Made by a program: the position numbers and the translations under genes. A stretch of DNA of 64,000 nt from Escherichia coli (GTDB lineage: Bacteria; Pseudomonadota; Gammaproteobacteria; Enterobacterales; Enterobacteriaceae), in assembly GCA_902500055.1 (NCBI GenBank), contig GCA_902500055.1_4131.1; one strand, given 5' to 3'. The notes below the pieces were generated by a model, which was not told the origin of the DNA, ran no database searches, and saw only the letters and a program-made list of their open reading frames with translations. Below, one piece after another: positions 18,168 to 46,557 of the stretch; position 1 is the first letter of the stretch, and every line of letters starts with the position of its first letter.

Positions 18168-18175
18168 TATAAATA
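18168..18175 (+). promoter_or_regulatory. T4-type late promoter TATAAATA (plus strand)
   Basis: Exact TATAAATA ~35 nt upstream of ATG 18210 in a divergent intergenic region. Confidence 0.5.
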
Positions 18176-23355: not shown

Positions 23356-24393
23356 TTATAACGATCTGTAAATTTGGATTAGAAGATTTTTATCAAACAT
23401 TGGTGAATCAATTTCCATAATTTGCTGTAAAACTATCTCATCAACTGATTCAGTACTTTCAAAACTAACACCATCTTCGATTAATTCTGAAATACTTTGC
23501 TTGCTAGTTACAACATTAAACTCCCTAATGTTATAAAGTTTAGTAAATGTATCACGAATAAAACTAATCTCATCAGTTGTTATTGATATATCAACTTGAA
23601 CTTTTGATATTGTGTTATCTTGTAGATAATAGCTTGGATCAGTCAACAATTCAGAAAGTGTGAATGTTCTATATTTTGGTGCATTATCCCATGACTTGAA
23701 AATAGGTTCTTTACCATGTTCAAGAATCATCACACCTCTTGCATCATCCCATGTATCGGAAAAATTATGTGGAAAACAATTACCAGTATAAACTACACGA
23801 GTTCCTTTTGAAGTTGTTTTTGACTGCCTTTTATGAAAATGCCCACTAAAAACATACTCACAACCACCAAAAGAACCTTCTGTTTCTTTTCCATGATCAG
23901 GCATTTCTACCATCTTGTTAAGCAAGTAACCTGGTAACTCTAAGTGACCAAAAACATACTTACTTTTTAGTTGAGGTAACAACTTATATTCATCTTCAAT
24001 CATAAATGGAATGAAAGTACAATCATCAAATGTTGTAATTTCATTAATGAATTCTATATTTTCATAAACTTGAGCCATATTGATACTTGTTATATCACGT
24101 TTGTTTTTATGATACATATCATGGTTGCCTACTAAAAAATATACTTTTTCAAAATTATCATTTAATAATTGAAGAATTTGTAAACCATAGTTTAGTGTTT
24201 GGATATTGATATTACTTCTATTATGAAAATAATCTCCCATAAAAACACAAACTTTGATATTATTTTTTTTAGCTACATCAATCATGAATTTAATGAAGTT
24301 TAAACAATCTTCATTGTGTTGCTTGCTGTTATTCTTTAAACCTAAGTGAATATCAGTGAATGTAATTGCTTTATCAAACAGAGCCATCTTCAT
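23356..24393 (-). CDS. 47: recombination endonuclease subunit gp47 (SbcD/Mre11-like metallophosphatase)
   Basis: Calcineurin-like motifs FTDIHLG, FMGDYFH, VGNHD, FGHLE, FSGHFH. Start chosen at ATG 24393 (MKMALFDK...) with AAAGGA upstream; track start 24405 is TTG. Confidence 0.85.
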   Translation of the reverse strand: MKMALFDKAITFTDIHLGLKNNSKQHNEDCLNFIKFMIDVAKKNNIKVCVFMGDYFHNRSNINIQTLNYGLQILQLLNDNFEKVYFLVGNHDMYHKNKRDITSINMAQVYENIEFINEITTFDDCTFIPFMIEDEYKLLPQLKSKYVFGHLELPGYLLNKMVEMPDHGKETEGSFGGCEYVFSGHFHKRQSKTTSKGTRVVYTGNCFPHNFSDTWDDARGVMILEHGKEPIFKSWDNAPKYRTFTLSELLTDPSYYLQDNTISKVQVDISITTDEISFIRDTFTKLYNIREFNVVTSKQSISELIEDGVSFESTESVDEIVLQQIMEIDSPMFDKNLLIQIYRSL

Positions 24394-25213
24394 TTTTCCT
24401 TTCAATCATGTTCAATTCAATTTCAATTTGACGTGTATGTGATGGCGTAAAGCCATGCATTTCAAGTAAATCATCACGTATATTTCGAACATTTTTCTCA
24501 CTATTCAATATAGAACGAAAACTATTGTTTACGAATGATGTATAGTAAGAGAAAGGATTTAGCTGAACTGCTGGTTTATCTTTTTTATAAAGAATGCTCT
24601 CTTTAAAGAGAAGTGCGTTTTTAACTAATTGTATTCTTGCATCACCCATCATTTCATCTAAGTATGTATAGTTTCTGTAATTAGATTTGTGTGAGATTTC
24701 CTCTGCAAGTTTAATGAACATCTTCCCAAGTTCATTTGTAATTTTACCATGAACAGTACTGAATTCACCAGTTTCAAGGTCGCCTTTCCAGTGAGAACGA
24801 CAAACTTCATAGAGAATACCTTCATTATCTACAATATAATGCTTGAATGGTTCAAAGTTAACTCTAGTATCTGGTGGAATATGTTCATCTGTAATAACAC
24901 GAATAACAACTTCATCAATTGGAACGTCAGTGATAACTAAATTGTGTTCATCTGCATATTCTTTAGCTTTTTTAGCACTCATATTTTCCTTTTCACGAAT
25001 ACTATCAAGCATTTCATTGTTCAGTCGTTTAATTCGGGCTGCCTTAGCTTTTTCTAGTAACTCAGCAGTAATTTCTGACTCATGAAAAACAATATAATCA
25101 TACATACTATATGATTTGTCTAATAACCAGCAATATGAAATTTTACTTTTTTGTATTTCACGCAGTAAATCAGCATTATTGAGATACTTTTTACGCTTTG
25201 GTCTATTTGTCAT
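24374..25213 (-). CDS. 55: putative late-transcription sigma factor (gp55-like)
   Basis: N-terminus KYLNNADLLREIQKSK resembles T4 gp55 KYNYVNNKELLQAIIDWK; adjacent to gene 47 as in T4; late TATAAATA promoters present. The protein is longer (279 aa) than T4 gp55. Confidence 0.5.
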   Translation of the reverse strand: MTNRPKRKKYLNNADLLREIQKSKISYCWLLDKSYSMYDYIVFHESEITAELLEKAKAARIKRLNNEMLDSIREKENMSAKKAKEYADEHNLVITDVPIDEVVIRVITDEHIPPDTRVNFEPFKHYIVDNEGILYEVCRSHWKGDLETGEFSTVHGKITNELGKMFIKLAEEISHKSNYRNYTYLDEMMGDARIQLVKNALLFKESILYKKDKPAVQLNPFSYYTSFVNNSFRSILNSEKNVRNIRDDLLEMHGFTPSHTRQIEIELNMIERKNEDGSV

Positions 25214-25301: not shown

Positions 25302-25309
25302 TATAAATA
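25302..25309 (+). promoter_or_regulatory. T4-type late promoter TATAAATA (plus strand)
   Basis: Exact TATAAATA ~36 nt upstream of ATG 25345, with RBS GGAG in between. Confidence 0.5.
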
Positions 25310-25344: not shown

Positions 25345-26076
25345 ATGATTGATCGTAGAATTCGATTACGACCTAAAGCCGCAGGTGCTAACTATGTATA
25401 TGGTGATTTTGGAGATAGCTCCGAACCAACTCTACTTTCGTTTCTGCGTCCAACTAATGGGTTGGTTTGGACTGTAACACCAACAATTACTGAACAAAGG
25501 TCAATTCAGTATGAAACACAGTCCCCTATACATACTAACAGTAACTATAACAACTATAAGAACACTACTAATACAGTTTTCACGATTCAGGGTGAATTTT
25601 ATGCGAATACAGCAGCAGAAGCTATGTATGCGTTGGCATGTGTTCATTTTATACGTTCTGTTTCGTTGATGGATTTTGGTAGACAAGCTGCTTCGGCTAA
25701 TAACCCCGAACTCGCAATTGCAGGTGCACCACCACCAATCTTACTTCTAAGTGGATATGGTCGTTATACATATAATGATATTCCTGTTATTTTAAAATCT
25801 TATAATTTTACTTACCCAAATGATGTTTCTTATATTCAAGTTCCGTTGAATAGTAGCGATAGTACTTTTAATTTATCCGACATGGATAGTAGAAAATTCT
25901 TCGAACAACTTAGAAGTACTGGATATATGAACCCACAAGATGAAGTTTGGGTTCCACAAAAAATCTCAGTTATGTTACAACTTGAAGAACAACCAACATC
26001 GGATTATATGACTAAAACGTTCAACCTCAATGCATTCAAACGTGGTGAACTATTACGTAAAGGAGGATTCATTTAA
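25345..26076 (+). CDS. hypothetical baseplate/tail-associated structural protein
   Basis: ORF track 25255..26076; real start taken as ATG 25345 (MIDRRIRLRPK...) downstream of the late promoter and RBS. First gene of the long plus-strand structural operon. Confidence 0.4.
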   Translation: MIDRRIRLRPKAAGANYVYGDFGDSSEPTLLSFLRPTNGLVWTVTPTITEQRSIQYETQSPIHTNSNYNNYKNTTNTVFTIQGEFYANTAAEAMYALACVHFIRSVSLMDFGRQAASANNPELAIAGAPPPILLLSGYGRYTYNDIPVILKSYNFTYPNDVSYIQVPLNSSDSTFNLSDMDSRKFFEQLRSTGYMNPQDEVWVPQKISVMLQLEEQPTSDYMTKTFNLNAFKRGELLRKGGFI

Positions 26077-28664: not shown

Positions 28665-31328
28665 ATGGCAGATACAAGTAAAAAGTATGCACAACAGCAG
28701 TTGGGTCGTTTTGACCCATCTTATCCGCAGTTAGCAACTGTTATGGATAACAGAGATCCAACTAAATCAGGAAAACTGAAAGTTTGGATACAAGGTTCTC
28801 AAAGTGATAAAAACTCAAAAGAATCATGGATAGAAGCATCTTACATGTCTCCTTTTGCTGGCAAAACACCAGGTATTCCAAGTGCTGATGCATATGGTCA
28901 ATATCCAAAAGGATATGGTTTTTGGGCAGTACCACCAGATGTAGGGTGTACAGTTGTTGTAATTTTTGCACAAGCCCGTACATTCCAAGCATATTGGATT
29001 GGTTGTGTATATGACCAGCGTATGAATACTATGGTTCCTGGTATGGCAACTGAAGTAAGTAATTATGGTGGAACTGATATGCCACTTCCTGTTACTGACT
29101 ATGATCGTAACACTATCACTACCGATATGCAAGACAAATATGCTAACGTTCCAATTATCGCAGGTCTTAAAAAGCAAAACCTTTTATATGACGAAGAAGC
29201 TGGGTTGGCGAATCGTAGTAGTACTCGTCAAACCACCAGTACTGTATATGGTATGTCTTCGCCACGTGGTAATAGTTTTATTATTGATGATGGATATACT
29301 GAAGAGGAATTAACAGCACCAACGTGGGATCAAGACCCAGATGGATATCAAGATACACAATTTAATAACCCAGTAAACGATACACGTGTTGGTTCTCGTA
29401 AAAATGAAGGTGTCGTAATAAAAACACGTAGTGGTGCACAACTTCTTTTATCAGAAGCTACTGGTGATGTTCTTTTAATTAACCGTGATGGCACTGCACG
29501 TATAAAATTCACTGGTGAAGGTGATATTGACATGCACTGTGATAAGAATATTAATATTCGTGCTGGTCAAGATATTAATATTACTGCTGGACGTTCATAT
29601 AATATTGAAACCGGACAAGATTTCAATGCACGAGTTGGTGCAAATACTAAATTAGATCTAATTGGTGCTCTTGATGCAAAAGTTGGTGGTCAAGTTGTTG
29701 TTAATTCTGGGGCAGACCTTCGTTTAGTTACTGCTGCATCATTACGTATGCAAAGTGGTAGCAGTACTGATATTACGGCTGGTTCAAATGCTTCTATTTC
29801 TGCCGCAACATCTGCAAACCTAATTGGATCATCATCAGCAATTATTAGTGGTGGTGGTCAAACATTAACAGTTAATAGTGGTGGTAATAGCGGTACTGCT
29901 GAATTTACTGCACCAAACTTTAGAACACCATCTGCTGGTCTTAATGAACACATTCATGATATTGCTGCATGGGTTAACGCTGAAAATCATGGTAGTTATG
30001 TTGAACCACCAAGACAAGGTGGTGGAAGTGGTTCTAGTGAATCACCAGTACAACCACAACCAGCAAATGATGTATCACCAGAATTACCCGTAGCACAAGA
30101 CACTGAAGCTGTTCAGTTTGTTAACTATACATCAGAAACTGAACAAGTTCAATCACAAGATTTGATGACATCTGATCCTGGGATGACTGGATATAGTATT
30201 ACATATGAAGGTTTACATATGTTAATGCCATGTAGCGGTACTATTCGCCAATATGGTTATTGGGGGAAAGGTGTTCCAACACAAAGTGGTGGGAAGTCAG
30301 ATCGTTCTGGATGGGAAATACAATGTAAAGGTGATGTAGTTGCACCAGATGGTGGTGTGGTAGTAATTACTAATGGTGCTCTTTTAATACAACATAAGTC
30401 TGGATATAAATCTATTTTTTATAATATTCAATCTGATTTATTAAACAAAGATGTTGTTCAAAAAGGTCAAGTTGTTGGAAAAGCAAATGGTGTCATACAG
30501 TTTGAAATTCGTGTTACATCAGCAAATGTTCTTGGATTCAGTGGTTCTGTTGACCCAGGATTATTTTATGCTTCACAAACAGGAACAGGGTCTGATGCGG
30601 CGAATAAAACATTAATTGGTGGTCAAGCAACTAATCAATCTGCTCCAAAAGCAGTTGTACAACCTTCAGTTGATAGTGATGAATTGGTAGTTACAACAAA
30701 AATCAAAACGATAGGTACTGGATATTCTCAACGTGGTTCTCGTCATGTGCCTCGTAGGAGAAGAACACAGAGAAGTGGAGCTTCAACAACTCCGGTGGAG
30801 CAACCTACCTATAATATTGGAAATGTTGATAAAACTGCAATCGATTGGAAAGTTGTTCCAGGTGATGCACAGTTTATTTCTGAATTAAAAGAATATGAAG
30901 GTACATTACAATACCAACAAGCAAAAGGATATTATCGTAATGGTAAATTCTGGCGTTATTTGGATAGTCGTGGGTATCCAACTATTGGTTATGGTCACTT
31001 GATTATTAGTGGTGAAAACTTTTCAGATGGAATAACTGAACAGCAAGCCAACGATATGTTAGTTCGTGATAGTAGTAAAGCAATTTATGATGCCAAATCA
31101 ATTTATGCATCATATAACATGAAAACTCCTTATCTTGCTCAACAAGTACTATGCCAAATGGTATTTCAGATGGGTAAAGGTGGTGTATTGAAATTTAAAA
31201 CTATGTTATCAGAAATGGCAAAAGGTAATTACAAACAAGCAGCGGCACAAATCCGTAATTCTGCTTGGTATCGCCAAACTACACGCCGTGCGGAGTTAAT
31301 GGCTCGTCGTTTGGAGGCATGTCAATAA
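28665..31328 (+). CDS. 5: baseplate central spike protein (gp5-like) with C-terminal T4-type lysozyme (GH24) domain
   Basis: C-terminal ~150 aa (YEGTLQYQQAKGYYRNGKFWRYLDSRGYPTIGYGHLI ... MVFQMGKGGVLKFKTML ... SAWYRQTTRRAELM) parallels T4 lysozyme ([23 protein letters not shown] ... MVFQMGETGVAGF ... SRWYNQTPNRAKRV); central region has beta-helix-like repeats (NINIRAGQDINITAGRSYNIETGQDFNARVGA...). Confidence 0.75.
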   Translation: MADTSKKYAQQQLGRFDPSYPQLATVMDNRDPTKSGKLKVWIQGSQSDKNSKESWIEASYMSPFAGKTPGIPSADAYGQYPKGYGFWAVPPDVGCTVVVIFAQARTFQAYWIGCVYDQRMNTMVPGMATEVSNYGGTDMPLPVTDYDRNTITTDMQDKYANVPIIAGLKKQNLLYDEEAGLANRSSTRQTTSTVYGMSSPRGNSFIIDDGYTEEELTAPTWDQDPDGYQDTQFNNPVNDTRVGSRKNEGVVIKTRSGAQLLLSEATGDVLLINRDGTARIKFTGEGDIDMHCDKNINIRAGQDINITAGRSYNIETGQDFNARVGANTKLDLIGALDAKVGGQVVVNSGADLRLVTAASLRMQSGSSTDITAGSNASISAATSANLIGSSSAIISGGGQTLTVNSGGNSGTAEFTAPNFRTPSAGLNEHIHDIAAWVNAENHGSYVEPPRQGGGSGSSESPVQPQPANDVSPELPVAQDTEAVQFVNYTSETEQVQSQDLMTSDPGMTGYSITYEGLHMLMPCSGTIRQYGYWGKGVPTQSGGKSDRSGWEIQCKGDVVAPDGGVVVITNGALLIQHKSGYKSIFYNIQSDLLNKDVVQKGQVVGKANGVIQFEIRVTSANVLGFSGSVDPGLFYASQTGTGSDAANKTLIGGQATNQSAPKAVVQPSVDSDELVVTTKIKTIGTGYSQRGSRHVPRRRRTQRSGASTTPVEQPTYNIGNVDKTAIDWKVVPGDAQFISELKEYEGTLQYQQAKGYYRNGKFWRYLDSRGYPTIGYGHLIISGENFSDGITEQQANDMLVRDSSKAIYDAKSIYASYNMKTPYLAQQVLCQMVFQMGKGGVLKFKTMLSEMAKGNYKQAAAQIRNSAWYRQTTRRAELMARRLEACQ

Positions 31329-31340
31329 ATATTTTAGCAC

Positions 31341-31348
31341 TATAAATA
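31341..31348 (+). promoter_or_regulatory. T4-type late promoter TATAAATA upstream of lysozyme gene
   Basis: Exact TATAAATA 17 nt upstream of ATG 31365. Confidence 0.5.
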
Positions 31349-31364
31349 AAACGAGGATATCTTT

Positions 31365-31853
31365 ATGAGTAAATGGGAAATTAAAAATACAGATGAGCAA
31401 TTTTTTAAGGAAATTAAAGAATTTGAAGGAACTATTGCTTATCAGAAAAAACTTGGTTATTTTAAAAATGATAAGTTTTGGGTATATAAAGACAGTTTAG
31501 GTCTTGATACTATTGGTTATGGTCATCTAGTTCTTCCTGGTGAAAATTTCAAGAATGGTTTGACCGAAGCTCAAGCTGACCAACTTCTTCTCAAAGATGC
31601 TCAAACTGCGTACAATGATGCAAAATCAATTTATGAACAATTCGGTATGACTGCACCAGTACAGGTACAACGTGTATTATGGTTAATGGTATTCCAAATG
31701 GGAAAAACCAAAGTTTTGAAATTTAAAAAAGCAATGACCGCATTAGGTAAAGCTGATTACAAAACTGCTGGTAAAGAATTGCGTGATAGTACATGGTATA
31801 AACAAACCACTTCACGAGCGGAAAAGATGGCACGTATCGTTGAATCCGTATAA
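31365..31853 (+). CDS. e: T4-type lysozyme / endolysin (glycoside hydrolase family 24)
   Basis: 162 aa; EGTIAYQKKLGYFKNDKFWVYKDSLGLDTIGYGHLV, MVFQMGKTKVLKFKKAM and STWYKQTTSRAEKM match the T4 lysozyme catalytic and core motifs; RBS GAGGA. Confidence 0.85.
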   Translation: MSKWEIKNTDEQFFKEIKEFEGTIAYQKKLGYFKNDKFWVYKDSLGLDTIGYGHLVLPGENFKNGLTEAQADQLLLKDAQTAYNDAKSIYEQFGMTAPVQVQRVLWLMVFQMGKTKVLKFKKAMTALGKADYKTAGKELRDSTWYKQTTSRAEKMARIVESV

Positions 31854-32333: not shown

Positions 32334-33041
32334 ATGAAAAGATATTATGGTTTCATTTATCAATGGGAAGATTGTTCCAATGGTATAAAATATATAGGTT
32401 CTCATTATGGAACAACTGATGACAAGTACGTGTCTTCTAATATTATAGTTAATCGCATTTATAAGAGTAGACCCCTTGATTTATCAAGAGTCGTTTTGGA
32501 ATATATTATTGTTAATGATAAGAATTTTTTATTGGAAAGAGAACAAAAATACTTAGATTTAATACTTCCGTCTGAATTGTATACTAGTACCAATAGAAAA
32601 AACAAAACCGTAAAATATTACAACATGAAAAAGAATGCATGTGGTGGTAACGGTGGTATTGGAAGTAATGGTATATTGAAAAATAAAATAAAATATTTTA
32701 ATAAAAATACTTTAGAACAGAAATTCTTTCATTATAATGATGACATATCGGATGATTGGATTAAAGGTGTACCCCCATCTAAGGTTAGTTGTTCAGGTAG
32801 TATTTGGTATCTAAATATACATACTGGAGAAAATAAAAGATTTAGACATAACCCTGGTATAGATTGGATTGAAGGAAAACGCAATACTTCAACAACACCA
32901 AAAAAGGTAAGCACACCATATGGGATTTTCGAAAGTGCATCTGAATGTAGTAGACAAACTGGAATAAAACAAGGAACTGTATCATTTAGGTGTCGTTCCA
33001 AATCAACTAATATGACAAATTGGTTTTATATAGAGGAATAA
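32334..33041 (+). CDS. GIY-YIG homing endonuclease (Seg-like)
   Basis: N-terminal YYGFIYQWEDCSNGIKYIGSHYG is a GIY-YIG motif; basic C-terminal half resembles the DNA-binding region of Seg endonucleases; inserted between gp25-like and gp6-like genes. Confidence 0.6.
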   Translation: MKRYYGFIYQWEDCSNGIKYIGSHYGTTDDKYVSSNIIVNRIYKSRPLDLSRVVLEYIIVNDKNFLLEREQKYLDLILPSELYTSTNRKNKTVKYYNMKKNACGGNGGIGSNGILKNKIKYFNKNTLEQKFFHYNDDISDDWIKGVPPSKVSCSGSIWYLNIHTGENKRFRHNPGIDWIEGKRNTSTTPKKVSTPYGIFESASECSRQTGIKQGTVSFRCRSKSTNMTNWFYIEE

Positions 33042-36537: not shown

Positions 36538-36585
36538 ATATCATAAATAAATCAAATGAATGAACGAATTATATGGAGTCCAAAA

Positions 36586-39500
36586 ATGACTAATAATTTT
36601 AAGTTTCAACCTACACAGATGGCTGAAGCAGTACAGAAGAAGCTTTTTATTAAAAGATTGCCTGAGTGGATGCAAGGCTTAGAAGATATTCAAAAAGTCA
36701 GTGATGATGTTATTCAACAATGGTTTAATCCGGCTGAAAACGAATTAGTTGACGGCTATATTGGTGATATGGGTTCTCCTGCCGCTGCTGGTAATATCTT
36801 CTTACATGAAAGTACTGTAGCACGTCAACTTTATCAGTTGTCCACTGCTTACGTCTCAAAAAATGATGATTCGACAATTCGTTCAATTCAATTTTATGAT
36901 GATCTAGTTGGATACATGAATCATTATGGAGCACTAACCGATAATGAAAGCCGTTTGTTCAACGGTAAGTTTTATGCATGGACTCCAGCTATTAACCCAA
37001 ATAAAATGAACAATTTTAGCTCATATCTTTGGGATACTAAAAACTCTTATAATATTACTTCACCTGATTACATTGTAATGGAACGTGGAGCACTTAATGG
37101 TAATACATGGTCACTACAAAACTTTTGGTATACTTTAGGTGAAACATTAGAAGATGGCTCAATATTAACTGAAGAATTAATGCAAGATTCACGTTTTATT
37201 CGTGCACGTGCACCAATTATTGAATATAATAAAAATATTGAGCTAATTAACTACGGTACAAAATTCCGTGGAACTGTTGATCTGTTCTCTGATATTATTA
37301 AACCTGAAGATATCGTTCAAAAAGATATTAATAGTGGTATACGTATTGATGGTATTATTCCGCAAGATGGAATGCGTATTCTATTCACCAGTATTGGTAA
37401 CAATGGTGAAAACAATAGAATTTATAATGTATATGTGAAAAAAATGCAAGATGGTACTCGTGTTTATGGTTTAGCACTAGATCCAGAAGAAGAAACCGAA
37501 TCACGCCCAAGTGGTGAACCACAAGATGGTGATGTTGTTCTAATCACTAAAGGTAATGAGTATGGTAATAGTTCTATGTACTGGAATGGATCTTTGTGGG
37601 TTCGTGCACAATCAAAAACTAGTGTTAACGTATTCCCTAAATTCCAACTTTATGATCGTAATGGTATCAAACTTGACAACAGTACTACATATCCATCAAG
37701 TAACTTTAAAGGTTCAGAGTTGTTTGGTTTTAAAATAAATTACAACTATGCAACTGATAGTGTATATGGATATAACATTGAACTTGGTGATTATAATTAT
37801 TACATTTATGAAAACTTTTTACAATCCCAACGTTATACCTATGACCATCTTGGAAAAGAAGTTGAAATTGATGGTTTATACTATTATAACATTATTGATG
37901 AAAATAATGAAATGAATCTTCAAACCGATTGGGTTCGTTCAGAAGAGTACTCTAAACAATTTGTAAAACAAACTCCACAAGTCAAACGTACTGATATGTA
38001 TCGTGTATTCAGTACTGTTTATGATATGGAAGTTTTTAAAGAACCAGTTGATGGTATGTATGCATATGTTATTGAAGTTGATAGAACCTATCAGTACTAT
38101 AAAGCAGACCGCGAAACTTATCTAGACTGGCATCCAATCACTGGTGATGGTGTTCAGATTGTAAAATATGACCATACATTCGAATTGGCACAAAAAGTTT
38201 TAGATAATGATTCTGATATTATTGAAGTTGTGGTTGATGGTGTTGATGTGTCCAAATATACCAAAAATGTTTCAAAAGGTCAAGTACAAAGCATCACTCT
38301 AGATAGTACTGTAGATTTGGATGAAGATTCTGTTATTCAAATCAGAACTTATAGCAGTACTGTAACTCCTAATAAAGAATTAGGTGCATATGAAGTTCCA
38401 ATCAACCTACAAAATAACCCATATAATTCTAATATTATATACATTAACCAAGGTGACTACACTTTACATTTTCAGGATATTATTCAAAAGAACATTACAC
38501 GTGGTTCTTCTGATGATTTCAATGACTATGAAGAACGTTTGGCTAAAGGATTGGTTAATAATGGCGTAGGTACTAAAATTATCCAAAATGAAGCATCTAT
38601 GCTTCCATTGATGGCACATACTGCAAATGAAGATATTGATTTGTTTGAAGCAACTATGTTTATGCAATCTGAATATTTTAGATTCATTAATAAATTTAAT
38701 ACACAAATGCTTCGTATGTATGATGAAAATCCATCAGACTTTTTACAAAATAGTGCTGCAAACATTGTTGATGCAATTTTAACTACTATTAATATGGGAC
38801 GTGATAGTTCATTCCCATTCTATTATGATAATGTTGGAAGTACTTCTGGATTCATTCGTGCATTTATACCACCAACACCACAGTTCTTAGGTATTCTTCA
38901 AGCATATGTACCAGAAAAAGCGACATTCCTCACTGCTGGTAGTAAACCAAGCTGTTATAACATCAGTCATACTGGTATTATTTCCAAAGCATACCGTGTT
39001 ATCAATGGTGTTGATAAAATGGATGATGTTGTATATGAATTAGAAAATAGAATTTTTAATAGTATTGATAATAAATTCAAAGATGTTGATTACGTACCAG
39101 TATTGAATAGTGATGACCTTTTCCCTACACCATATTTCACTAAAACTGAATATAGTGCTGAAGAGAAACAAACATTATTACTACGTGGATACATTAACTT
39201 CACCGCAACTAATGGTATCAGTAATAGTACACATGATTATGATCCTAACAATTGGAGAACTTGGAACTATACTGGCACTTATTATGTAGTTAATGGTCAA
39301 AGTACTGAAATTCCTGCTCGTGGTTCATGGCGTGCAATTTATACTGACCAATATGGTACATATCGCCCTGCAACACATCCGTGGGAAATGTTTGGCTTTT
39401 CACAGCGTCCAACTTGGTGGAACCAAGAATATGAACCAACTGCTGTTCAAGTTGGTGAGCGTGATAGTGATGTGGTATATGTATATGAAGCACTTGTTAT

Positions 39501-42500
39501 GAATGAACAAGGAGATTTAGTTCCTAGTGGTCTATGGGATATCGACGGCACTATCGGAGATAGTAGTACTGGTACTATTTTGTCTGGTGATCGCCGTGGA
39601 CAGTATGACAAATATAAAAGATTTGGTGTACAGCCATTTAAAATCACAAAAACTGGTAATAAAACATCTTCCGGTATTGATATTTGTGTTGTTGAATATA
39701 TTGCACCTGAAATTTTAGGTTTAGTGTCTGGTTCTTTAAATCATAGAGCAGAACCTTGGGCATATGGTGACATGGGTGACATGGAATTTACATACATGAA
39801 CACTACATTGTTTGCATATGACCAAATGCTACTTTTGTATAAAGCTAAACCTGCACAATTTGCTAACTATTTTTGGGATACCCGAAATGACAATTTAAAA
39901 GAAGTATTCACTGATGGTTCACAATTCCTTTATGGTGATACACGTAAGCGTATTAATTTTGATAAAAACACTGTAGTTCATGGTGAAAATAACACAAGAA
40001 CAATTGGTTATCAAATGTTTGTTAGTGATTATTTGATGTATCAAAATAAAAACATTACAACCAAATATGGGGATGTAGTTCGTTCTTCTTATATAAATGT
40101 TGGTCATAAAATTGGTGGTTTTACTAAAGCAGATCAGCTAACATTCAATGCTAAATCATTTGGTCTTATTTCACAAGAAAACCAAACTATTGGTCTTGTT
40201 CGCTCGAATAATATTCGTGATGAACAAATGAGTGCTATCAAAATTACTTGGAATGGTAGTGCATATCAGATTGATGGATATGATTTAGTTGGTGCTAAAT
40301 TCAAATATAAACTGCCAGTGAAAAATGGTAGAAAAGTAACTCTTAAATTAGAAAACCGCAATGTTGTTCATTATAACGAATGGAAATCTGAAGCTTCCAT
40401 TGAATATGGTAAAGTTTTTAATAGTTACCAAGAAGTTTATACTTTTATTTGTGGTTATGGTGAATATCTTAAAGAACATGGCTGGATTTTTGAAGATGTA
40501 AATGATAGTGGTGCTCAACAAGATTGGAACACTATTGCTAAAGATTTTGTGATCTGGAGTCAGAATTCTCTGGTAACGGGTGAATTTATTTCTTGTACAC
40601 CAAGTGCAGCAAATGCTAAATTTGGTGCAGACTTTGGTTCAGTTCAATCTATTACACAAAATAACGGTGGTGTGTGGTCATTACTTGATGATAACAACCA
40701 AGGTATACGTCAATATGAAATTGAAACTTCTCGTATTGGTAATATCTTTACTGTTAGAACTTTAGAATCCAATAAACGTATAGCATTAATTCGTTTAAGT
40801 TTGTGTTCATATGAACATGCTGTTATTTTTGATGATAAGACTATTTTTGGTGATTATATCTATCAGCCAACTTATGGTTCTATTCAAGAATTAATTAAAA
40901 TGTATGGCTACATTACTGGTTCATGGACTGGTCGTCTACAAGCTCCTGGATTTATTATCTTGGAAGCTGGAACACTACCATCATTTGAAAAATTAGTGTC
41001 GGATTTCCAACATTATTATGATAGTGAAACTCCAGTAAGTGATGTACAATTACAAGAGTTGTCAAACCATTTGATTGGTTATCAATCTCGTGATTATCTA
41101 CAGCGTATGATTAGTAGTGATGTTAGTCGTGTTGATTTCTATAAAGGATTCATTCATGATAAAGGTACTAACCAAGTTTTAGAACGTGTACTTCGTGTTT
41201 CTAAATCATATGACACAGATGAATATAAAGCATTACAAGAATGGGCATTTAAAATTGGTACATATGGTAATATTGATGGTAAGAAAAACCTTCAATTTAA
41301 ACTAATCAATGACCAATTTAAACAACAACCACAAATGGTATCTTTTGATGTAAACGCTACTTCAAATGGAAATGGAAACAATATTGTATACTTCGGCGAA
41401 CAAGGTAAAGATCCTCGTTGGATTACACGTCCAAATGGTAAGTTCTCATTCCCGATGCGTAGTGGAAGAAGTGAAAACATTCAACTTCCAGATATTGGTC
41501 CAGTAACATTGGATGAAGTATCTTACACTACAAAAGATTTCAGTACTGCATATAATGACCGTATAACTTACACTAATGGTAAAGGTGAAAACCCTGAATC
41601 TGTTTGGATGTTTAAAGACGGAAATGGTTTATGGAATATTTTTGAATTAGTTGATACTAATGTGCAAATGGTTTCTATAACACCTATTGAAAATACCGAT
41701 GTGTATGCTGAACAATTTTGTAAAGTAACTTTAACTGATAATGTGCCACTTGAAGATGGTGATTATTATTATTTTGTTGATGAAACTAACTTTATGCCAG
41801 ATACTTTAACAGTAGAAAGTCAATATTATACTGCTGGTTCTGATCCTAAAGTTATGGTAGTTCCATTTGACACTTCTATTGATATTGAATTTACTGATCC
41901 AGATACACGTCCACGTTTGTATCGTTATGTATCACGTTTTGCCAGTGCAGAAGAGCGTCAAGCATATATTGACAAAAAGTATAGTTACAAAGCACCACAA
42001 AGTACTTTTTTTGACCGTCCAACTACATATGATGAACGTACTAACATTACTGCATTATATCTAAATGTGTATGACCCTATCAATGGGGTTATTCCTGGTG
42101 CAGCAATGCAAAACGTAACTTATACGTCACCAATAGACCCAGCACAATATAATAGCAATGGTGAATTAATTCAGGCTTGGGGTGCTGATAAAGTTGGTCA
42201 AGTATGGTGGAACACTAGCACTGCATTTTATTTGGATTATACTCGTGCAATTTATGACGCAGACGGTAATGTTGACATTGATGCAACCAATGAATACAAA
42301 CGTTACAACTGGGGTCGTTTATTACCACATAGTACAATTGATGTGTTAGAGTGGGTTTGTTCACCAGTTGAGCCATATAACTGGGACAAATACTGTAAAG
42401 ATGTTGCTAAGAAAAACAAAAATAATACTATGTATCTACCAAGTGGAACTGCACTTGAAGATAATTATAGTACATTTTTGGAATATGATAGTTCAACTGA

Positions 42501-45500
42501 TAGTTATGTGACAAAATACTATTTCTGGGTACGTGATACAATTTATGTACCACCACTACATACCAGAACAAAATCATGTACTGACATTGCTCGTATTATT
42601 AAAGATCCAACACAGCTAAACATTCCTTGGTTCGCTCCAATCAATGAAAACTCGTTTATTCTTAGTAATATGCAATTTAAAGTGAATGATGATACCAGTA
42701 TTTTAACTGTTTCTTATTACATGGATAGTACTGAAGTTGTTAAACATGACCAGTATCAACTATGTAAAGAAGGTGACAGCTATAACTTTAACCCACTAAT
42801 TTGGGATTCAATGTGGAACTCACTAATTGGTCAAGAAACAACTGAATCAGGTTCTGTGATTAATTTATTATATCCAGATGTTGATAACGGTTTAGGTTCA
42901 AACAAAACTTGGTTCCAAAATGTTATAGAAGCTCGTAGAAACTTTGTAGAAAGTGCTAATAATTATTATAGGTCACAAAACATAACCACTAATAGTGTTG
43001 TTATGAAAGATGTGTTTAATGTTAAAACCACTGAAGTTAACCCTAATGAAGTTTCTTTCCGTGTCTTGTCTTACAATAATGAATTAGTTATTGCAGTTGA
43101 AAGTGATAAATTTAAAGAAAATGACGCTGTTATTTTAAGTACTAGTGGATATCTACCAAATCCATTAACTTCTAGTGCTGTTTATTTTATTCACTTCGAC
43201 GAAAATGGATATATTCAGTTAATGAATAGTCCAGCAAACGCGGGTAGTGTTGTTACTATAACGTTAGAGAACAAAGGTGAGGGACAACATAAAATGATTA
43301 AGCAATCTGATTATGTTGAATCACTAGGAACTTCATTAGACATGACTCAGTACTGGTCATATGCTGATTGGTATGATGTTGGGTATGATAGTAACACGAC
43401 TTATACACAAGAGTCAAGCTTAGAAGATGCTAATACTAAAAACTACCAAGTTGGCGATATTATCAGAGTTACCGATAGTGAAAACATTTGGACATTGTAT
43501 ATTAAATCACAATCACGCGATTCAATTTATTGGAAAGCGATTGGTCGTGAAAACAGTACAGTTGAACTCAATGATATGCTTTACGCAGATTATAGTGTTC
43601 ATAATGATAATGGTTCACTAAGCAATCGTGAAATCAACGTTCGTAAAGCACTAGCTTTACTCAAAAATTCTTTCGATTTACATCAAAGCGAAATTGTTTT
43701 TGATATGGTCAAATATGTACATGTTGAACAAAGTGTTGTGGATTGGGTATTTAAAACATCATATATCTATATTGTTGGTTTGGAACAATCATTAGTTCAA
43801 AACTATTCAAACGATAATTTGATTAATCAAATTGTTGAATATTTTGAAGAAGTTAAACCTTATAGAACTAAAATTCGTTCACAAATAGAGCAAAAGACAT
43901 CTGATGATGATTTAATAAAAGGTCTATGTAATGATTTAGATCCTAATGGATATATTTTCGTTGATGGTTCTTGGATCAAAACTGAAAAAGATATTTGGGA
44001 TTATGAGTACGCTCAATTTAATGAAATTACCCAAAAATGGGAACAGGTAGGTTCACTACCAAGTGATTTCGTTACACCAAATAGAAGATTCCAAGAAATT
44101 GATATTATTATGCATTATGATAATATTCAGTGTAAACCAAATGAAGATTTGGCAAGCATAAATGAATTAGTAAGTGTTAATAACAAATATCAATCCAATG
44201 AAAAGGATGCTGTTAGTAACTATGAATTACAACGTTATATATATTCTTTCCCAGAATATAGTGAAGAAACTTTCGATCTTCTTATTGCTTATCAAATGCA
44301 AATCTACTATCCAGAATTGGATGTAACACTAGGAACAGCATATGGCGTTAACCAGTGGTATAAAGACCATGCGGAAGATTTAGAAGCAACTGATGAATTC
44401 ACTGCTACATTGGAACGTGTTTATAAAGAATCAACGCATAACGATATGTTTACTGACCTTAGACAATATGTTCAGTATAACACATTGGCAAACCGTTTGA
44501 AACTTTATAAAGATATAAGTGATGAGAAAATTCACGATGAAGTTGGATGTGGATTTAGTGGACTTACTTATAATGACAATCCTAGTACTAGACTTCCATT
44601 AGGCTTTTCTTCTAGTAATGATTATAACTATGGATATTTTGAAATAAGCAGTGAATTGTATCAAAAATACATTTCATTAATTAAAGATAAAAATCCTGAC
44701 GCATCAGACTATGAAGTAAAAGTTAAACTTGAAGTTGAGTATGGTGTATATGTTTATCGTTATGATGAAGTAGGTGGTGATACCCGTTTCTATACTGATG
44801 CTATTCACGTATTAGCAGGTATGAGAGGGTTATTCGACAAAGACGCTACTGATAAGTACGAAAAAGCTGAAGAGATTCTTAGTAAGACCCCAATTGATAT
44901 CTATGCAATTACAATGATTCCACGAAAATATGTTTACTTAAATGTTAACGGTGTATATCAAAGTATACCTGATGAACAAAGTATTGATGATTTCATGGAA
45001 GATTATTTTATCACAAATGGTGAAATGGTTGAACTAGCTGAAATAAATCTTGATGATTTACCACTAGATCAAAATAATCCAATGTATTCTGATTATCAAT
45101 ATATACTTGATAGTATTACTGAAGCTAAGTACTTCAATGATATGAATGCATTTGATAACCTAGCATTAGAATCTCAAACTTCTTCAATAAAATGGGAAGT
45201 TAAAGATGATGAGGTTGATCCTTATATTGTGGATATATCTGACATAAACCCTTCTGGGCGTGATGTTGGTCAAATTAGATTTACAGTTGATGGATATGGG
45301 TTTGACAATGTATCTCTTGTACAATTACGTGATAACAGCAGATATCAAACTGAAGGTATGGCAATTATCAATCCATATAAACATACAGAAGCAATTGTTA
45401 GTATTCCTTCATATGCTAAGATTGAAAATGATATTAATAAAACAACATCGAAGTTTGATGAAAAATATTTCTATCGTGTGAGATCTATTAATAGCTTAAC

Positions 45501-46557
45501 TGAAGCAGAAATAGTTGACAATGACCTATCTGATGGTGATAAGGTGATGATTTTCACTCCTGATGGTGAAGATTTTGTGAGATATCAAAATCACACATGG
45601 GAAACAATCTTGCGTGTATCTAACATCAAAAACAATACAACTCCGATCCTATTCACTGTAAGAAATACAGGTAAGGAAACGATTGAATTGATTGATGAGA
45701 GTACTGGTGCAGTTCTCCGTTATGATAACATCACTCTTGCACAACAAAATGAGCCAGTACAGCCTCTAGCATTGAACATTGTTCGTGTTAGAACATTTGC
45801 TGACCCTGAATTTGTCAAGAATGGTATTAAATTGTATGAACAAAATAGAAATTACACCATTGATGTAATTAATTATGATGTTTTCTACGATACTACTTTA
45901 AATGGTGGTAAGTACAATGACGGAATAACACCAGATGACGTTGACGTTTGGATAATCTCTAATGAAATATTTGATGTTGATGGAATTACTATCGATAACG
46001 GTTATAACTTACCAATTACGGGTGCGGGAGTTCTTAGTGAATTGGCAAGAACTAAAATGACTGATAGTTTAGAAATCAACGTTATCGAATATGATTCAAG
46101 TGTTATTCAACCGTTTAGAAATAATGAAGGGATATGGGTTTATGGATTCCCAATGGTTGACGGTATGTATATCGGTGTTGTTGGTGGTACTGTTACTAAC
46201 ATCACAACCATTAGTGAAGAAAATACAACCTATGTTTCTCAACCTAAATCAATAAGTCCTTATAGTATTAGAAATAATGTTTTATCCGGTTCAGCCGCAA
46301 ACATGAATGATATTATATCGATTGGATATGAAAAAGTTGAAGTTAGAAATGCAAATAATTTACTCCGTGGTGTAATGTATAGTGCAGAACATGATTTTAA
46401 ACTTAATACTACATATTCTTTCAATGGAATTAATTTAGGTAATTATGATATGTTAAAACGTTACACACAAAATAGTTACACTATAGATCTTTCAGTATAC
46501 ACTGATAGTCTACAAGTTAGTGGTAATGATATTAAAAATATATTATTAGTTAAGTAA
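36586..46557 (+). CDS. giant virion structural protein (~3,320 aa), positional analogue of baseplate gp7
   Basis: Uninterrupted ~10-kb reading frame in the baseplate module; start set to ATG 36586 (GGAG 8 nt upstream) rather than track start 36556, which lacks an RBS. Non-repetitive, Asn/Tyr/Asp/Thr-rich. No catalytic motif recognised by eye. Confidence 0.6.
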   Translation: MTNNFKFQPTQMAEAVQKKLFIKRLPEWMQGLEDIQKVSDDVIQQWFNPAENELVDGYIGDMGSPAAAGNIFLHESTVARQLYQLSTAYVSKNDDSTIRSIQFYDDLVGYMNHYGALTDNESRLFNGKFYAWTPAINPNKMNNFSSYLWDTKNSYNITSPDYIVMERGALNGNTWSLQNFWYTLGETLEDGSILTEELMQDSRFIRARAPIIEYNKNIELINYGTKFRGTVDLFSDIIKPEDIVQKDINSGIRIDGIIPQDGMRILFTSIGNNGENNRIYNVYVKKMQDGTRVYGLALDPEEETESRPSGEPQDGDVVLITKGNEYGNSSMYWNGSLWVRAQSKTSVNVFPKFQLYDRNGIKLDNSTTYPSSNFKGSELFGFKINYNYATDSVYGYNIELGDYNYYIYENFLQSQRYTYDHLGKEVEIDGLYYYNIIDENNEMNLQTDWVRSEEYSKQFVKQTPQVKRTDMYRVFSTVYDMEVFKEPVDGMYAYVIEVDRTYQYYKADRETYLDWHPITGDGVQIVKYDHTFELAQKVLDNDSDIIEVVVDGVDVSKYTKNVSKGQVQSITLDSTVDLDEDSVIQIRTYSSTVTPNKELGAYEVPINLQNNPYNSNIIYINQGDYTLHFQDIIQKNITRGSSDDFNDYEERLAKGLVNNGVGTKIIQNEASMLPLMAHTANEDIDLFEATMFMQSEYFRFINKFNTQMLRMYDENPSDFLQNSAANIVDAILTTINMGRDSSFPFYYDNVGSTSGFIRAFIPPTPQFLGILQAYVPEKATFLTAGSKPSCYNISHTGIISKAYRVINGVDKMDDVVYELENRIFNSIDNKFKDVDYVPVLNSDDLFPTPYFTKTEYSAEEKQTLLLRGYINFTATNGISNSTHDYDPNNWRTWNYTGTYYVVNGQSTEIPARGSWRAIYTDQYGTYRPATHPWEMFGFSQRPTWWNQEYEPTAVQVGERDSDVVYVYEALVMNEQGDLVPSGLWDIDGTIGDSSTGTILSGDRRGQYDKYKRFGVQPFKITKTGNKTSSGIDICVVEYIAPEILGLVSGSLNHRAEPWAYGDMGDMEFTYMNTTLFAYDQMLLLYKAKPAQFANYFWDTRNDNLKEVFTDGSQFLYGDTRKRINFDKNTVVHGENNTRTIGYQMFVSDYLMYQNKNITTKYGDVVRSSYINVGHKIGGFTKADQLTFNAKSFGLISQENQTIGLVRSNNIRDEQMSAIKITWNGSAYQIDGYDLVGAKFKYKLPVKNGRKVTLKLENRNVVHYNEWKSEASIEYGKVFNSYQEVYTFICGYGEYLKEHGWIFEDVNDSGAQQDWNTIAKDFVIWSQNSLVTGEFISCTPSAANAKFGADFGSVQSITQNNGGVWSLLDDNNQGIRQYEIETSRIGNIFTVRTLESNKRIALIRLSLCSYEHAVIFDDKTIFGDYIYQPTYGSIQELIKMYGYITGSWTGRLQAPGFIILEAGTLPSFEKLVSDFQHYYDSETPVSDVQLQELSNHLIGYQSRDYLQRMISSDVSRVDFYKGFIHDKGTNQVLERVLRVSKSYDTDEYKALQEWAFKIGTYGNIDGKKNLQFKLINDQFKQQPQMVSFDVNATSNGNGNNIVYFGEQGKDPRWITRPNGKFSFPMRSGRSENIQLPDIGPVTLDEVSYTTKDFSTAYNDRITYTNGKGENPESVWMFKDGNGLWNIFELVDTNVQMVSITPIENTDVYAEQFCKVTLTDNVPLEDGDYYYFVDETNFMPDTLTVESQYYTAGSDPKVMVVPFDTSIDIEFTDPDTRPRLYRYVSRFASAEERQAYIDKKYSYKAPQSTFFDRPTTYDERTNITALYLNVYDPINGVIPGAAMQNVTYTSPIDPAQYNSNGELIQAWGADKVGQVWWNTSTAFYLDYTRAIYDADGNVDIDATNEYKRYNWGRLLPHSTIDVLEWVCSPVEPYNWDKYCKDVAKKNKNNTMYLPSGTALEDNYSTFLEYDSSTDSYVTKYYFWVRDTIYVPPLHTRTKSCTDIARIIKDPTQLNIPWFAPINENSFILSNMQFKVNDDTSILTVSYYMDSTEVVKHDQYQLCKEGDSYNFNPLIWDSMWNSLIGQETTESGSVINLLYPDVDNGLGSNKTWFQNVIEARRNFVESANNYYRSQNITTNSVVMKDVFNVKTTEVNPNEVSFRVLSYNNELVIAVESDKFKENDAVILSTSGYLPNPLTSSAVYFIHFDENGYIQLMNSPANAGSVVTITLENKGEGQHKMIKQSDYVESLGTSLDMTQYWSYADWYDVGYDSNTTYTQESSLEDANTKNYQVGDIIRVTDSENIWTLYIKSQSRDSIYWKAIGRENSTVELNDMLYADYSVHNDNGSLSNREINVRKALALLKNSFDLHQSEIVFDMVKYVHVEQSVVDWVFKTSYIYIVGLEQSLVQNYSNDNLINQIVEYFEEVKPYRTKIRSQIEQKTSDDDLIKGLCNDLDPNGYIFVDGSWIKTEKDIWDYEYAQFNEITQKWEQVGSLPSDFVTPNRRFQEIDIIMHYDNIQCKPNEDLASINELVSVNNKYQSNEKDAVSNYELQRYIYSFPEYSEETFDLLIAYQMQIYYPELDVTLGTAYGVNQWYKDHAEDLEATDEFTATLERVYKESTHNDMFTDLRQYVQYNTLANRLKLYKDISDEKIHDEVGCGFSGLTYNDNPSTRLPLGFSSSNDYNYGYFEISSELYQKYISLIKDKNPDASDYEVKVKLEVEYGVYVYRYDEVGGDTRFYTDAIHVLAGMRGLFDKDATDKYEKAEEILSKTPIDIYAITMIPRKYVYLNVNGVYQSIPDEQSIDDFMEDYFITNGEMVELAEINLDDLPLDQNNPMYSDYQYILDSITEAKYFNDMNAFDNLALESQTSSIKWEVKDDEVDPYIVDISDINPSGRDVGQIRFTVDGYGFDNVSLVQLRDNSRYQTEGMAIINPYKHTEAIVSIPSYAKIENDINKTTSKFDEKYFYRVRSINSLTEAEIVDNDLSDGDKVMIFTPDGEDFVRYQNHTWETILRVSNIKNNTTPILFTVRNTGKETIELIDESTGAVLRYDNITLAQQNEPVQPLALNIVRVRTFADPEFVKNGIKLYEQNRNYTIDVINYDVFYDTTLNGGKYNDGITPDDVDVWIISNEIFDVDGITIDNGYNLPITGAGVLSELARTKMTDSLEINVIEYDSSVIQPFRNNEGIWVYGFPMVDGMYIGVVGGTVTNITTISEENTTYVSQPKSISPYSIRNNVLSGSAANMNDIISIGYEKVEVRNANNLLRGVMYSAEHDFKLNTTYSFNGINLGNYDMLKRYTQNSYTIDLSVYTDSLQVSGNDIKNILLVK

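Follow-up and report, generated by a model that had tools for sequence, protein, structure and literature searches.

Why does a jumbo phage carry two T4-type lysozymes side by side, one of them at the very end of its baseplate spike? The question is raised by a stretch of 64,000 nucleotides (hereafter the window) from the Escherichia coli assembly GCA_902500055.1 (contig GCA_902500055.1_4131.1), which belongs to an Asteriusvirus jumbo coliphage with 98% nucleotide identity to phAPEC6, and also 98% to PBECO4 and 121Q. Two open reading frames (ORFs) are concerned: ORF A (887 aa), the central spike of the baseplate, and ORF B (162 aa), a free-standing lysozyme of family GH24. The first-pass annotation, made from the letters of the window, had reported one T4-lysozyme domain ending the spike and a separate 162-aa lysozyme 36 nt downstream. 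The ORF listing confirmed the coordinates of both genes and of their spacer (31329-31364), and matches to Pfam PF00959 were obtained in both ORFs. The pair was thus correctly observed, but the pairing is not new, because the paper on CBB (2017) and GenBank annotations already describe it. In CBB, the trio consists of CBB_240, with an OB-fold N-terminus and a C-terminal lysozyme, CBB_239, a free T4-type lysozyme, and CBB_238, the gp25 protein; of CBB_240 it was stated that its "architecture differs" from that of gp5 (PMC5259590). What is newly defined here is the full layout of the spike, with an internal HxH motif, a presumably dead LytM domain and a terminal GH24 domain, which is conserved across a deep family of jumbo phages. 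We favor, with moderate confidence, a reading in which A is a tethered entry enzyme on the central spike and B a soluble late muramidase.

Layout of the spike

From its N- to its C-terminus, A is made of an OB fold, a VgrG-type beta-helix, the HxH segment, a first linker, a domain of the LytM/M23 fold, a second linker and the GH24 domain (Table 1), an architecture that we assign with high confidence. When a profile of orthologs covering residues 1-480 was compared with the PDB, the best matches were VgrG spikes of type VI secretion systems (T6SS), with 4uhv first (E 5e-6), then 8gra and 4mtk; the tail of the 4uhv alignment was disregarded since it runs into the His-tag of that construct. As the first-pass annotation had pointed out, the order of domains is not that of T4 gp5: the OB fold and the beta-helix of A both lie N-terminal to the lysozyme, whereas gp5 runs OB fold, GH24, helix. 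The two proteins have in common an N-terminal OB fold and a trimeric beta-helix, and T4 gp5 and gene e likewise provide a spike-borne GH24 domain and a paralogous free one in a single genome. However, the helix of A is of the VgrG/DUF2345 type and not Gp5_trimer_C, it is followed by an HxH and does not end the chain, whereas the helix of gp5 is capped by the PAAR protein gp5.4. Moreover, genes 5 and e lie apart in T4, while the genes of A and B are adjacent.

The HxH segment begins immediately past the end of the beta-helix and reads H429-I-H431. Its L..HxH pattern was kept in 20/20 extended spikes, including all Rak2-like spikes and all six deep homologs, and was absent from the spike of PA5oct in the alignment. 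The Apex of P2 gpV (LHTHKH) shows the same pattern at the same position, with a BLAST E-value of 8.6. An HxH close to the C-terminus is known to mark an Apex, while spikes without HxH use a PAAR cap (bioRxiv 10.1101/2023.02.25.529910). In P2 gpV and in spikes of the phi92 gp138 type, an OB fold and an intertwined beta-helix are also followed by L-x-x-HxH(xH), but the motif stands there 10-14 residues from the C-terminus, and the Apex binds Fe in an octahedral cage of six His on the threefold axis; in A, where the likeness is one of motif, ~456 residues with two folded domains lie beyond, so the HxH is internal and falls outside the last ~20 residues expected of an Apex. No PAAR protein was found among 10 small ORFs of the window, a partial check given a genome of ~350 kb. 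The segment might act as an apex or trimer clamp, a reading that we hold tentatively and that falls slightly short of an even chance.

Beyond this point, the chain alternates between linkers and folded modules. Linker 1 is relaxed as compared with the domains (dN/dS 0.17-0.20) and contains an invariant QPANDV, and linker 2 contains the conserved motif S..ELVV.T...IG..YSQRGS.HVPRR. QPANDV and the linker-2 motif are short, highly conserved stretches within otherwise fast-evolving linkers and might serve for docking or for processing. With pI values of 8.6 (LytM) and 9.35 (GH24), the two modules are basic, in contrast to an acidic spike core (pI 4.9), and this difference of charge would let them fold back onto the helix. 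By hydropathy, neither A nor B has a transmembrane (TM) segment (maximum KD value of 0.89 in B).

A probable degenerate LytM domain in the middle of the extension

The first-pass annotation had also proposed that a Cys/His-containing middle segment of the spike, the quoted strings of which we located at residues 521 and 575, might be an additional peptidase-like domain. A fold is indeed recognisable there, but it is very unlikely to be an active peptidase. Five lines of evidence make it very likely that residues ~506-640 adopt the LytM/M23 fold. The segment of the window itself matches Pfam M23 with an E-value of 3e-4 and 21.3 bits, under the cutoff of 28.7; among 14 orthologs, 13 show this weak match too (E 1.4e-5 at best), and the divergent homologs P0128 and P0132 exceed the cutoff with 30.1 and 33.4 bits, respectively. 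Compared with the PDB, a profile of 10 sequences found LasA (E 0.0018), pseudoalterin (E 0.006), TagE, SpoIIQ and DipM as best matches. In a database of 5.8 billion proteins, the segment of the window had essentially no matches, fused orthologs seeming to be missing from that database; the non-orthologous matches obtained there (E 2e-3 to 9e-2) all belonged to PF01551. When 1.84 billion representative proteins were searched exhaustively by HMMER with residues 506-724, only eight matches were returned, all of them spikes apart from one fragment, and these spikes (872-984 aa) carry the module at the same position within the same order of domains. With the paralog from the window as the sole extra row, AlphaFold2 (AF2) gave a pLDDT of 20-35 for the LytM region. 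A structure prediction with five database rows had a usable core, the fold match of which is corroborative only and not independent, because the small multiple sequence alignment contained M23 proteins.

At the positions of the zinc-binding and catalytic motifs (HxxxD, YxHL and HxH), the window reads RSGWE, FYNIQ and VIQFE, and no zinc ligand or catalytic His was restored in any of the 20 homologs of the alignment. A catalytic site built from Cys and His was considered and rejected: relatives have Val, Thr, Ser or Ile in place of C523, and neither C554 nor H518 is constant. The invariant H577 corresponds to a structural, non-ligand His of the M23 fold, since it aligns with H71 of LasA and not with the catalytic H81. 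Nevertheless, the domain evolves under strong purifying selection (dN/dS 0.03-0.05), as constrained as both lysozymes, and its closest structural and sequence neighbors include the inactive LytM domains of EnvC, DipM and SpoIIQ. The domain is likely to be catalytically dead and, judged from its sequence, is a putatively functional but non-catalytic "degenerate LytM" (dLytM) domain. It shares with the dLytM factors EnvC, NlpD, DipM and SpoIIQ the M23 fold, the loss of the catalytic site and a conserved sequence; those factors are, however, cellular regulators that either bind to amidases or lytic transglycosylases and activate them, or build a channel during sporulation, whereas the domain of A is fused to a phage spike. 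The tail-tip peptidoglycan hydrolase gp13 of phi29 (PDB 3csq) also combines a lysozyme-like domain with an M23 endopeptidase, but there the M23 domain is active, the glycosidase comes first, and the protein is not part of a beta-helical spike.

Two lysozymes with conserved catalytic residues

PF00959 matched residues 765-882 of A (E 2.7e-11, 44.3 bits) and residues 40-147 of B (E 5e-9, 37.0 bits), in both cases above the cutoff of 22.3 bits. Residues 728-885 of A and 4-161 of B can be aligned without gaps at 52% identity (E 5e-57), and no third GH24 copy was found within the window. In an alignment with T4 lysozyme (T4L), the equivalents of Glu11, Asp20 and Thr26 are E745, D767 and T773 in A and E21, D43 and T49 in B, so neither copy has lost its catalytic Glu or Asp. 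The AF2 model of the fused domain has a pLDDT of 80-93, and T4 lysozyme accounts for each of its top 50 matches in Foldseek (TM 0.68-0.74, on the target); its sequence finds the lysozyme domain of T4 gp5 and T4L as best matches in the PDB.

Between their catalytic Glu and Asp, both copies have an insertion of 13 residues relative to T4L, and the GH24 domain lacks the counterpart of T4L residues ~35-50. We considered the insertion as a novelty of jumbo phages and rejected this idea, as it is shared with lysozymes of ~150 aa from Serratia, Pantoea, Erwinia and E. coli genomes, which in Serratia lie in prophages at positions resembling those of lysis cassettes. The insertion therefore marks a GH24 subfamily.

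Both copies are under strong purifying selection, with dN/dS of 0.02-0.05 for the fused and 0.05-0.06 for the free copy. Across 20 loci, Glu, Asp and Thr are invariant in the free copy; in the fused copy, Glu and Asp are kept throughout and the Thr, present in the window, has been lost in some metagenomic relatives (Thr to Asp in L007, L008, L010 and L013, Thr to Ser in L019). The fused lysozymes of P0129 and P0133 are also without the Thr26 equivalent, the substitutes among relatives being Asp, Ser, Ile or Val, and P0133 has possibly lost the Glu too. In Thr-losing relatives the free copy, where present, is intact, which hints at an uneven erosion of the spike-borne enzyme. A further observation concerns the penultimate Cys886 of A (31320-31322, in the context ...EAC[QE] or ...ESCQ), which is invariant in the fused copies of Rak2-like spikes and P0128; it is missing from the deepest lineages and from free copies, except for the free copy of L019, which ends in ...ESC. 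Recent gene conversion between A and B was rejected, given their uniform nucleotide identity of ~59%, a longest identical run of 17 nt and saturated dS.

Unlike a canonical endolysin, B does not lie in a lysis cassette with holin or spanin, has neither a signal-arrest-release (SAR) sequence nor another signal, and sits between the spike and gp25 genes. Its ortholog in phage UE-S1, LysUE1, has been cloned and expressed and lyses EDTA-permeabilised cells, i.e. it is muralytic (PMC12805682); it shares 96% identity with ORF B. A distinct protein of the TM-LysM-lysozyme type, CBB_187 or 121Q gp532, is the probable (SAR) endolysin of these phages (PMC5259590).

Distribution and origin of the pair

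The gene order of spike, 162-aa lysozyme and gp25 was found in Asteriusvirus, in Eneladusvirus and in 17 jumbo-phage loci of IMG/VR, and the architecture of the spike is kept from phages of E. coli, Klebsiella and Erwinia to the marine Vibrio jumbo phage 2.275.O. In Alcyoneusvirus, the spike and the free lysozyme are separated by an insertion of two genes on the reverse strand, of 152 and 140 aa (Klebsiella phage KP13-7, L002 6447-7339; RaK2, L020). Genomic context showed that the free lysozyme adjoins the spike in P0128, P0129 and P0130, and that it is absent beside the spike in P0131 (Vibrio phage 2.275.O, 349 kb), P0132 and P0133, where gp25 directly follows the spike. The spike of PA5oct has 477 aa, ends where linker 1 would begin and has no adjoining lysozyme; this phage encodes separate wall-degrading proteins (PMC7318152). 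Thus, the fused copy is universal among the extended spikes examined and the free copy has been lost or gained more than once. The free copy appears dispensable, since it is patchy and related lineages with the same spike and gp25 do without it.

The first-pass annotation had read the pair as a duplication followed by fusion or fission. The paralogy of the two lysozymes is supported, as Rak2-like A and B copies cluster together against the nearest outside (prophage) lysozymes with 88% bootstrap; the direction of the event is not, because the trees fail to resolve it. The GH24 tree including deep lineages (155 columns) is not resolved, and in the spike-core tree the lineages that have B are scattered among those that do not. 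We withdrew the scenario of a free gene that was duplicated and then fused, to which the clade of A and B (88%), the greater proximity of B to prophage lysozymes and the lack of both copies in PA5oct had pointed, because three deep lineages hold the fused copy only. The lysozyme tree and the patchy distribution of B do not decide between fusion and fission.

Two side observations were made among these loci. In Vibrio phage 2.275.O (L035/L037) and in the P0133 contig (L036), the hub-like gene of ~700 aa, which all other lineages have ahead of the spike gene, is missing from this place, and a gp53-like gene abuts the spike gene. P0070, a protein of 236 aa on a JGI metagenome contig of 4191 bp, joins 43 gp25-like N-terminal residues to the linker-2/GH24 C-terminus of a spike; this chimera probably stems from an assembly artefact or else represents a deletion variant.

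Expression signals and neighboring genes

The T4 late-promoter consensus TATAAATA is rarer in the window than expected by chance (6 found versus 10.4 expected). Its copies lie at 900, 11026 and 12235 on the minus strand and at 18168, 25302 and 31341 on the plus strand, and each of the six precedes, by 16-56 nt and in the correct orientation, an ATG that has a Shine-Dalgarno sequence. A gene for a gp55-like late sigma factor lies just upstream of the baseplate block, on the other strand, and the TATAAATA copies would fit this gene by behaving as T4-type late promoters. In the part of the plus strand scanned between 25302 and 32269, no terminator-like site was detected, including between A and B. 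The copy ahead of B was considered as a universal feature and rejected as such, for it is kept in two genera only, Asteriusvirus and Alcyoneusvirus, in the latter 36 nt upstream of the lysozyme gene. Outside these genera, a spacer of 31-36 nt with a Shine-Dalgarno sequence suggests that B would be co-transcribed with the spike gene.

Downstream of B, an I-TevI-like homing endonuclease of 235 aa lies between the gp25-like and gp6-like baseplate genes. The same junction has no gene in phAPEC6 and an unrelated HNH endonuclease in 121Q; because its content differs among the window and these two phages, it looks like a hotspot of homing endonucleases. Directly after the gp6-like wedge gene follows a giant ORF of 3333 aa, the ortholog of phAPEC6 gp245, a virion protein of 382 kDa.

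Table 1. Features of the spike-lysozyme locus and its surroundings (positions in the window)
Feature	Position	Strand	Residues	Basis or remark
gp55-like late sigma gene	24374-25213	-		Just upstream of the baseplate block
TATAAATA, likely late promoter of the operon including A and B	25302..25309	+		Precedes the gene (25345-26076) that opens the baseplate block
ORF A, baseplate central spike with C-terminal enzyme extension	28665..31328	+	1-887	Ortholog of phAPEC6 Gp241, 121Q gp587 and CBB_240; matches PHROG 13211 end to end
OB-fold domain, docks the spike to the tube/hub	28731..29012	+	23-116	Pfam PF04717 Phage_base_V, E 5.4e-8, 33.5 bits (cutoff 23.8)
Triple-stranded beta-helix, VgrG/DUF2345 type	29472..29930	+	~270-422	Pfam PF10106 DUF2345 at 278-329, E 1.3e-9
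Apex-like segment, L-x-x-H-x-H (H429, H431, then N-H442)	29931..30011	+	423-449	Match at the level of the motif alone
Linker 1	30012..30179	+	450-505	Gly/Ser/Pro/Gln-rich, acidic, pI 4.05; alignment
QPANDV of linker 1	30057-30074	+	465-470	Invariant
Degenerate LytM / peptidase-M23-fold domain	30180..30584	+	506-640	Zinc ligands and catalytic His absent
Linker 2	30585..30836	+	641-724	Basic, pI 10.35; dN/dS 0.04-0.12
Conserved motif of linker 2	30666-30758	+	668-698	Alignment
GH24 (T4-type) lysozyme domain of the spike	30837..31328	+	725-887	Pfam PF00959; catalytic E745, D767, T773; penultimate Cys886
TATAAATA, T4-type late-promoter-like element	31341..31348	+		16 nt before the start codon of ORF B
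Shine-Dalgarno sequence GAGGA	31353-31357			Ahead of ORF B
ORF B, free-standing GH24 lysozyme	31365..31853	+	1-162	Pfam PF00959; paralog of the C-terminal domain of the spike; no signal peptide, no TM segment
I-TevI-like homing endonuclease	32334-33041	+		Pfam I-TevI_DNA-bd; PHROG
Giant ORF	36556-46557	+		Ortholog of phAPEC6 gp245

Discussion

We read A as an entry spike because of its anatomy, of mass spectrometry (MS) of virions and of the precedents of T4 gp5 and phi29 gp13. In phAPEC6 virions, Gp241 (the ortholog of A) was detected with 7 peptides and 9.9% coverage, while gp242 (the ortholog of B) was not listed (PMC7247149); in CBB virions, CBB_240 alone was found of the trio, with 3 peptides (PMC5259590). 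The N-terminal 450 residues of A, with the OB fold, the VgrG-type triple beta-helix and the HxH, would form the piercing device, in which the HxH segment may clamp or cap the trimer like the Apex of P2 gpV. Beyond the helix, each chain would go on through an acidic, flexible linker to a pair of globular modules, both basic. The first, of the LytM/M23 fold, has lost its zinc site and would most likely bind peptidoglycan or a partner instead of acting as a peptidase; the second is predicted to be an intact GH24 muramidase. Contraction of the tail would carry three tethered LytM-GH24 pairs with the spike through the outer membrane and, by analogy with T4 gp5 and phi29 gp13, the muramidase of the spike might then open the peptidoglycan locally for the tail tube. 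B would be an old paralog whose late transcription comes from read-through of the baseplate operon and, in this genus, also from a TATAAATA promoter of its own. It would be a soluble active muramidase that is not stoichiometric in the virion, and it probably adds muralytic capacity at lysis beside the membrane-anchored endolysin. On balance, we think that the extension is retained on the spike and used at entry; that B is non-structural is a separate proposition, towards which we also lean.

Several points weigh against this picture. The motif behind the apex assignment is short, with a BLAST E-value of 8.6, and an internal apex trailing three tails of 440 residues is hard to reconcile with the importance given to a narrow tip (bioRxiv 10.1101/2023.02.25.529910). 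The M23 score of the window itself is below the cutoff. Virion MS of Gp241 consists of counts without peptide positions, so that the presence of residues 450-887 on the mature spike is inferred. As to B, it lies inside the baseplate operon and not in a lysis cassette, and a structural role is possible; besides, virion MS easily misses small proteins of low copy number, the gp25-like protein being also undetected.

This last point bears on the possibility that B is a component of the baseplate or virion, either as a second tail-associated lysozyme or as a partner docking on the extension of the spike. Its gene stands between those of the spike and gp25 in a late baseplate operon in nearly all lineages, and an endolysin distinct from B is predicted for this group of phages. 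Two independent virion proteomes (phAPEC6 and CBB) did not reveal B, but this is weak evidence because the gp25-like protein, which is certainly structural, was missed in the same proteomes. Three lineages keep the same spike and gp25 without B beside the spike, so B is not needed to build the baseplate. Moreover, Alcyoneusvirus has two reverse-strand genes between the spike gene and that of B, and the nearest outside relatives of B are lysozymes of prophage lysis cassettes. We regard a structural B as unlikely.

Somewhat less probable still is the removal or detachment of the C-terminal extension (linker, LytM and GH24) during maturation of the spike, which would leave the HxH apex as the mature tip. 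This might occur in the way in which T4 gp5 is cleaved, or in that of the C-terminal intramolecular chaperones of fibers and spikes, the lysozyme either staying non-covalently bound or acting only within the producing cell. It would explain why an HxH, which usually marks the C-terminal Apex of a spike, is internal in A with 456 residues beyond; the modules are flanked by flexible, fast-evolving linkers, and their motifs QPANDV and ...YSQRGS.HVPRR could be sites of processing as well as of docking. However, purifying selection on both domains of the extension is as strong as on the core of the spike, and the lysozyme retains its catalytic residues, as would be expected of a working enzyme more than of a chaperone that is discarded. 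In addition, no protease site can be identified in the sequence. The mass of 95.9 kDa given for phAPEC6 Gp241 is a predicted one (PMC7247149) and is uninformative either way.

If the extension stays on the spike, as we prefer, its dead LytM domain could also be a mimic of EnvC or NlpD that, once brought into the periplasm by the tip of the spike, binds and switches on the host amidases AmiA/B/C or positions the tethered GH24 on the sacculus, with the modules folded onto the acidic helix; we consider this quite improbable. Finally, a two-enzyme spike like phi29 gp13, with a middle domain active through non-canonical residues such as Cys/His, is highly improbable, since the three zinc ligands and both catalytic His are replaced by residues other than His or Asp in 20/20 homologs, no candidate among C523, C554, H518 and H577 withstands the comparison described above, and the nearest neighbors include the inactive LytM domains of EnvC, DipM and SpoIIQ.

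A comparison with secretion systems helps to place this spike. The VgrG-3 protein of V. cholerae is an evolved T6SS VgrG with a peptidoglycan-degrading C-terminal extension. A resembles such proteins in that a VgrG-type beta-helix is extended C-terminally by a wall-degrading module; it differs from them in having no gp27-like N-terminal module in its chain, in being a structural protein of a phage and not an effector, and in an extension made of a dead LytM and a GH24 domain.

To conclude, two lysozymes, one of them on the spike, are little news in themselves, as they already stood in the literature and in GenBank. LysUE1 is under development as an antibacterial, yet this enzyme is probably not the main endolysin of its phage. 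If the improbable EnvC-mimic reading were true, entry would be a combined attack of phage muramidase and host amidases, and if the modules fold back, as the same reading supposes, the spatial arrangement of T4 gp5 would be recreated by a chain of permuted topology, in which the Fe-HxH apex is internal. For the jumbo phages of this family, the ~450 residues beyond the HxH question the view that a narrow hard tip counts in membrane piercing, and the protein provides a natural case of a phage spike loaded with cargo, much as an evolved VgrG is.

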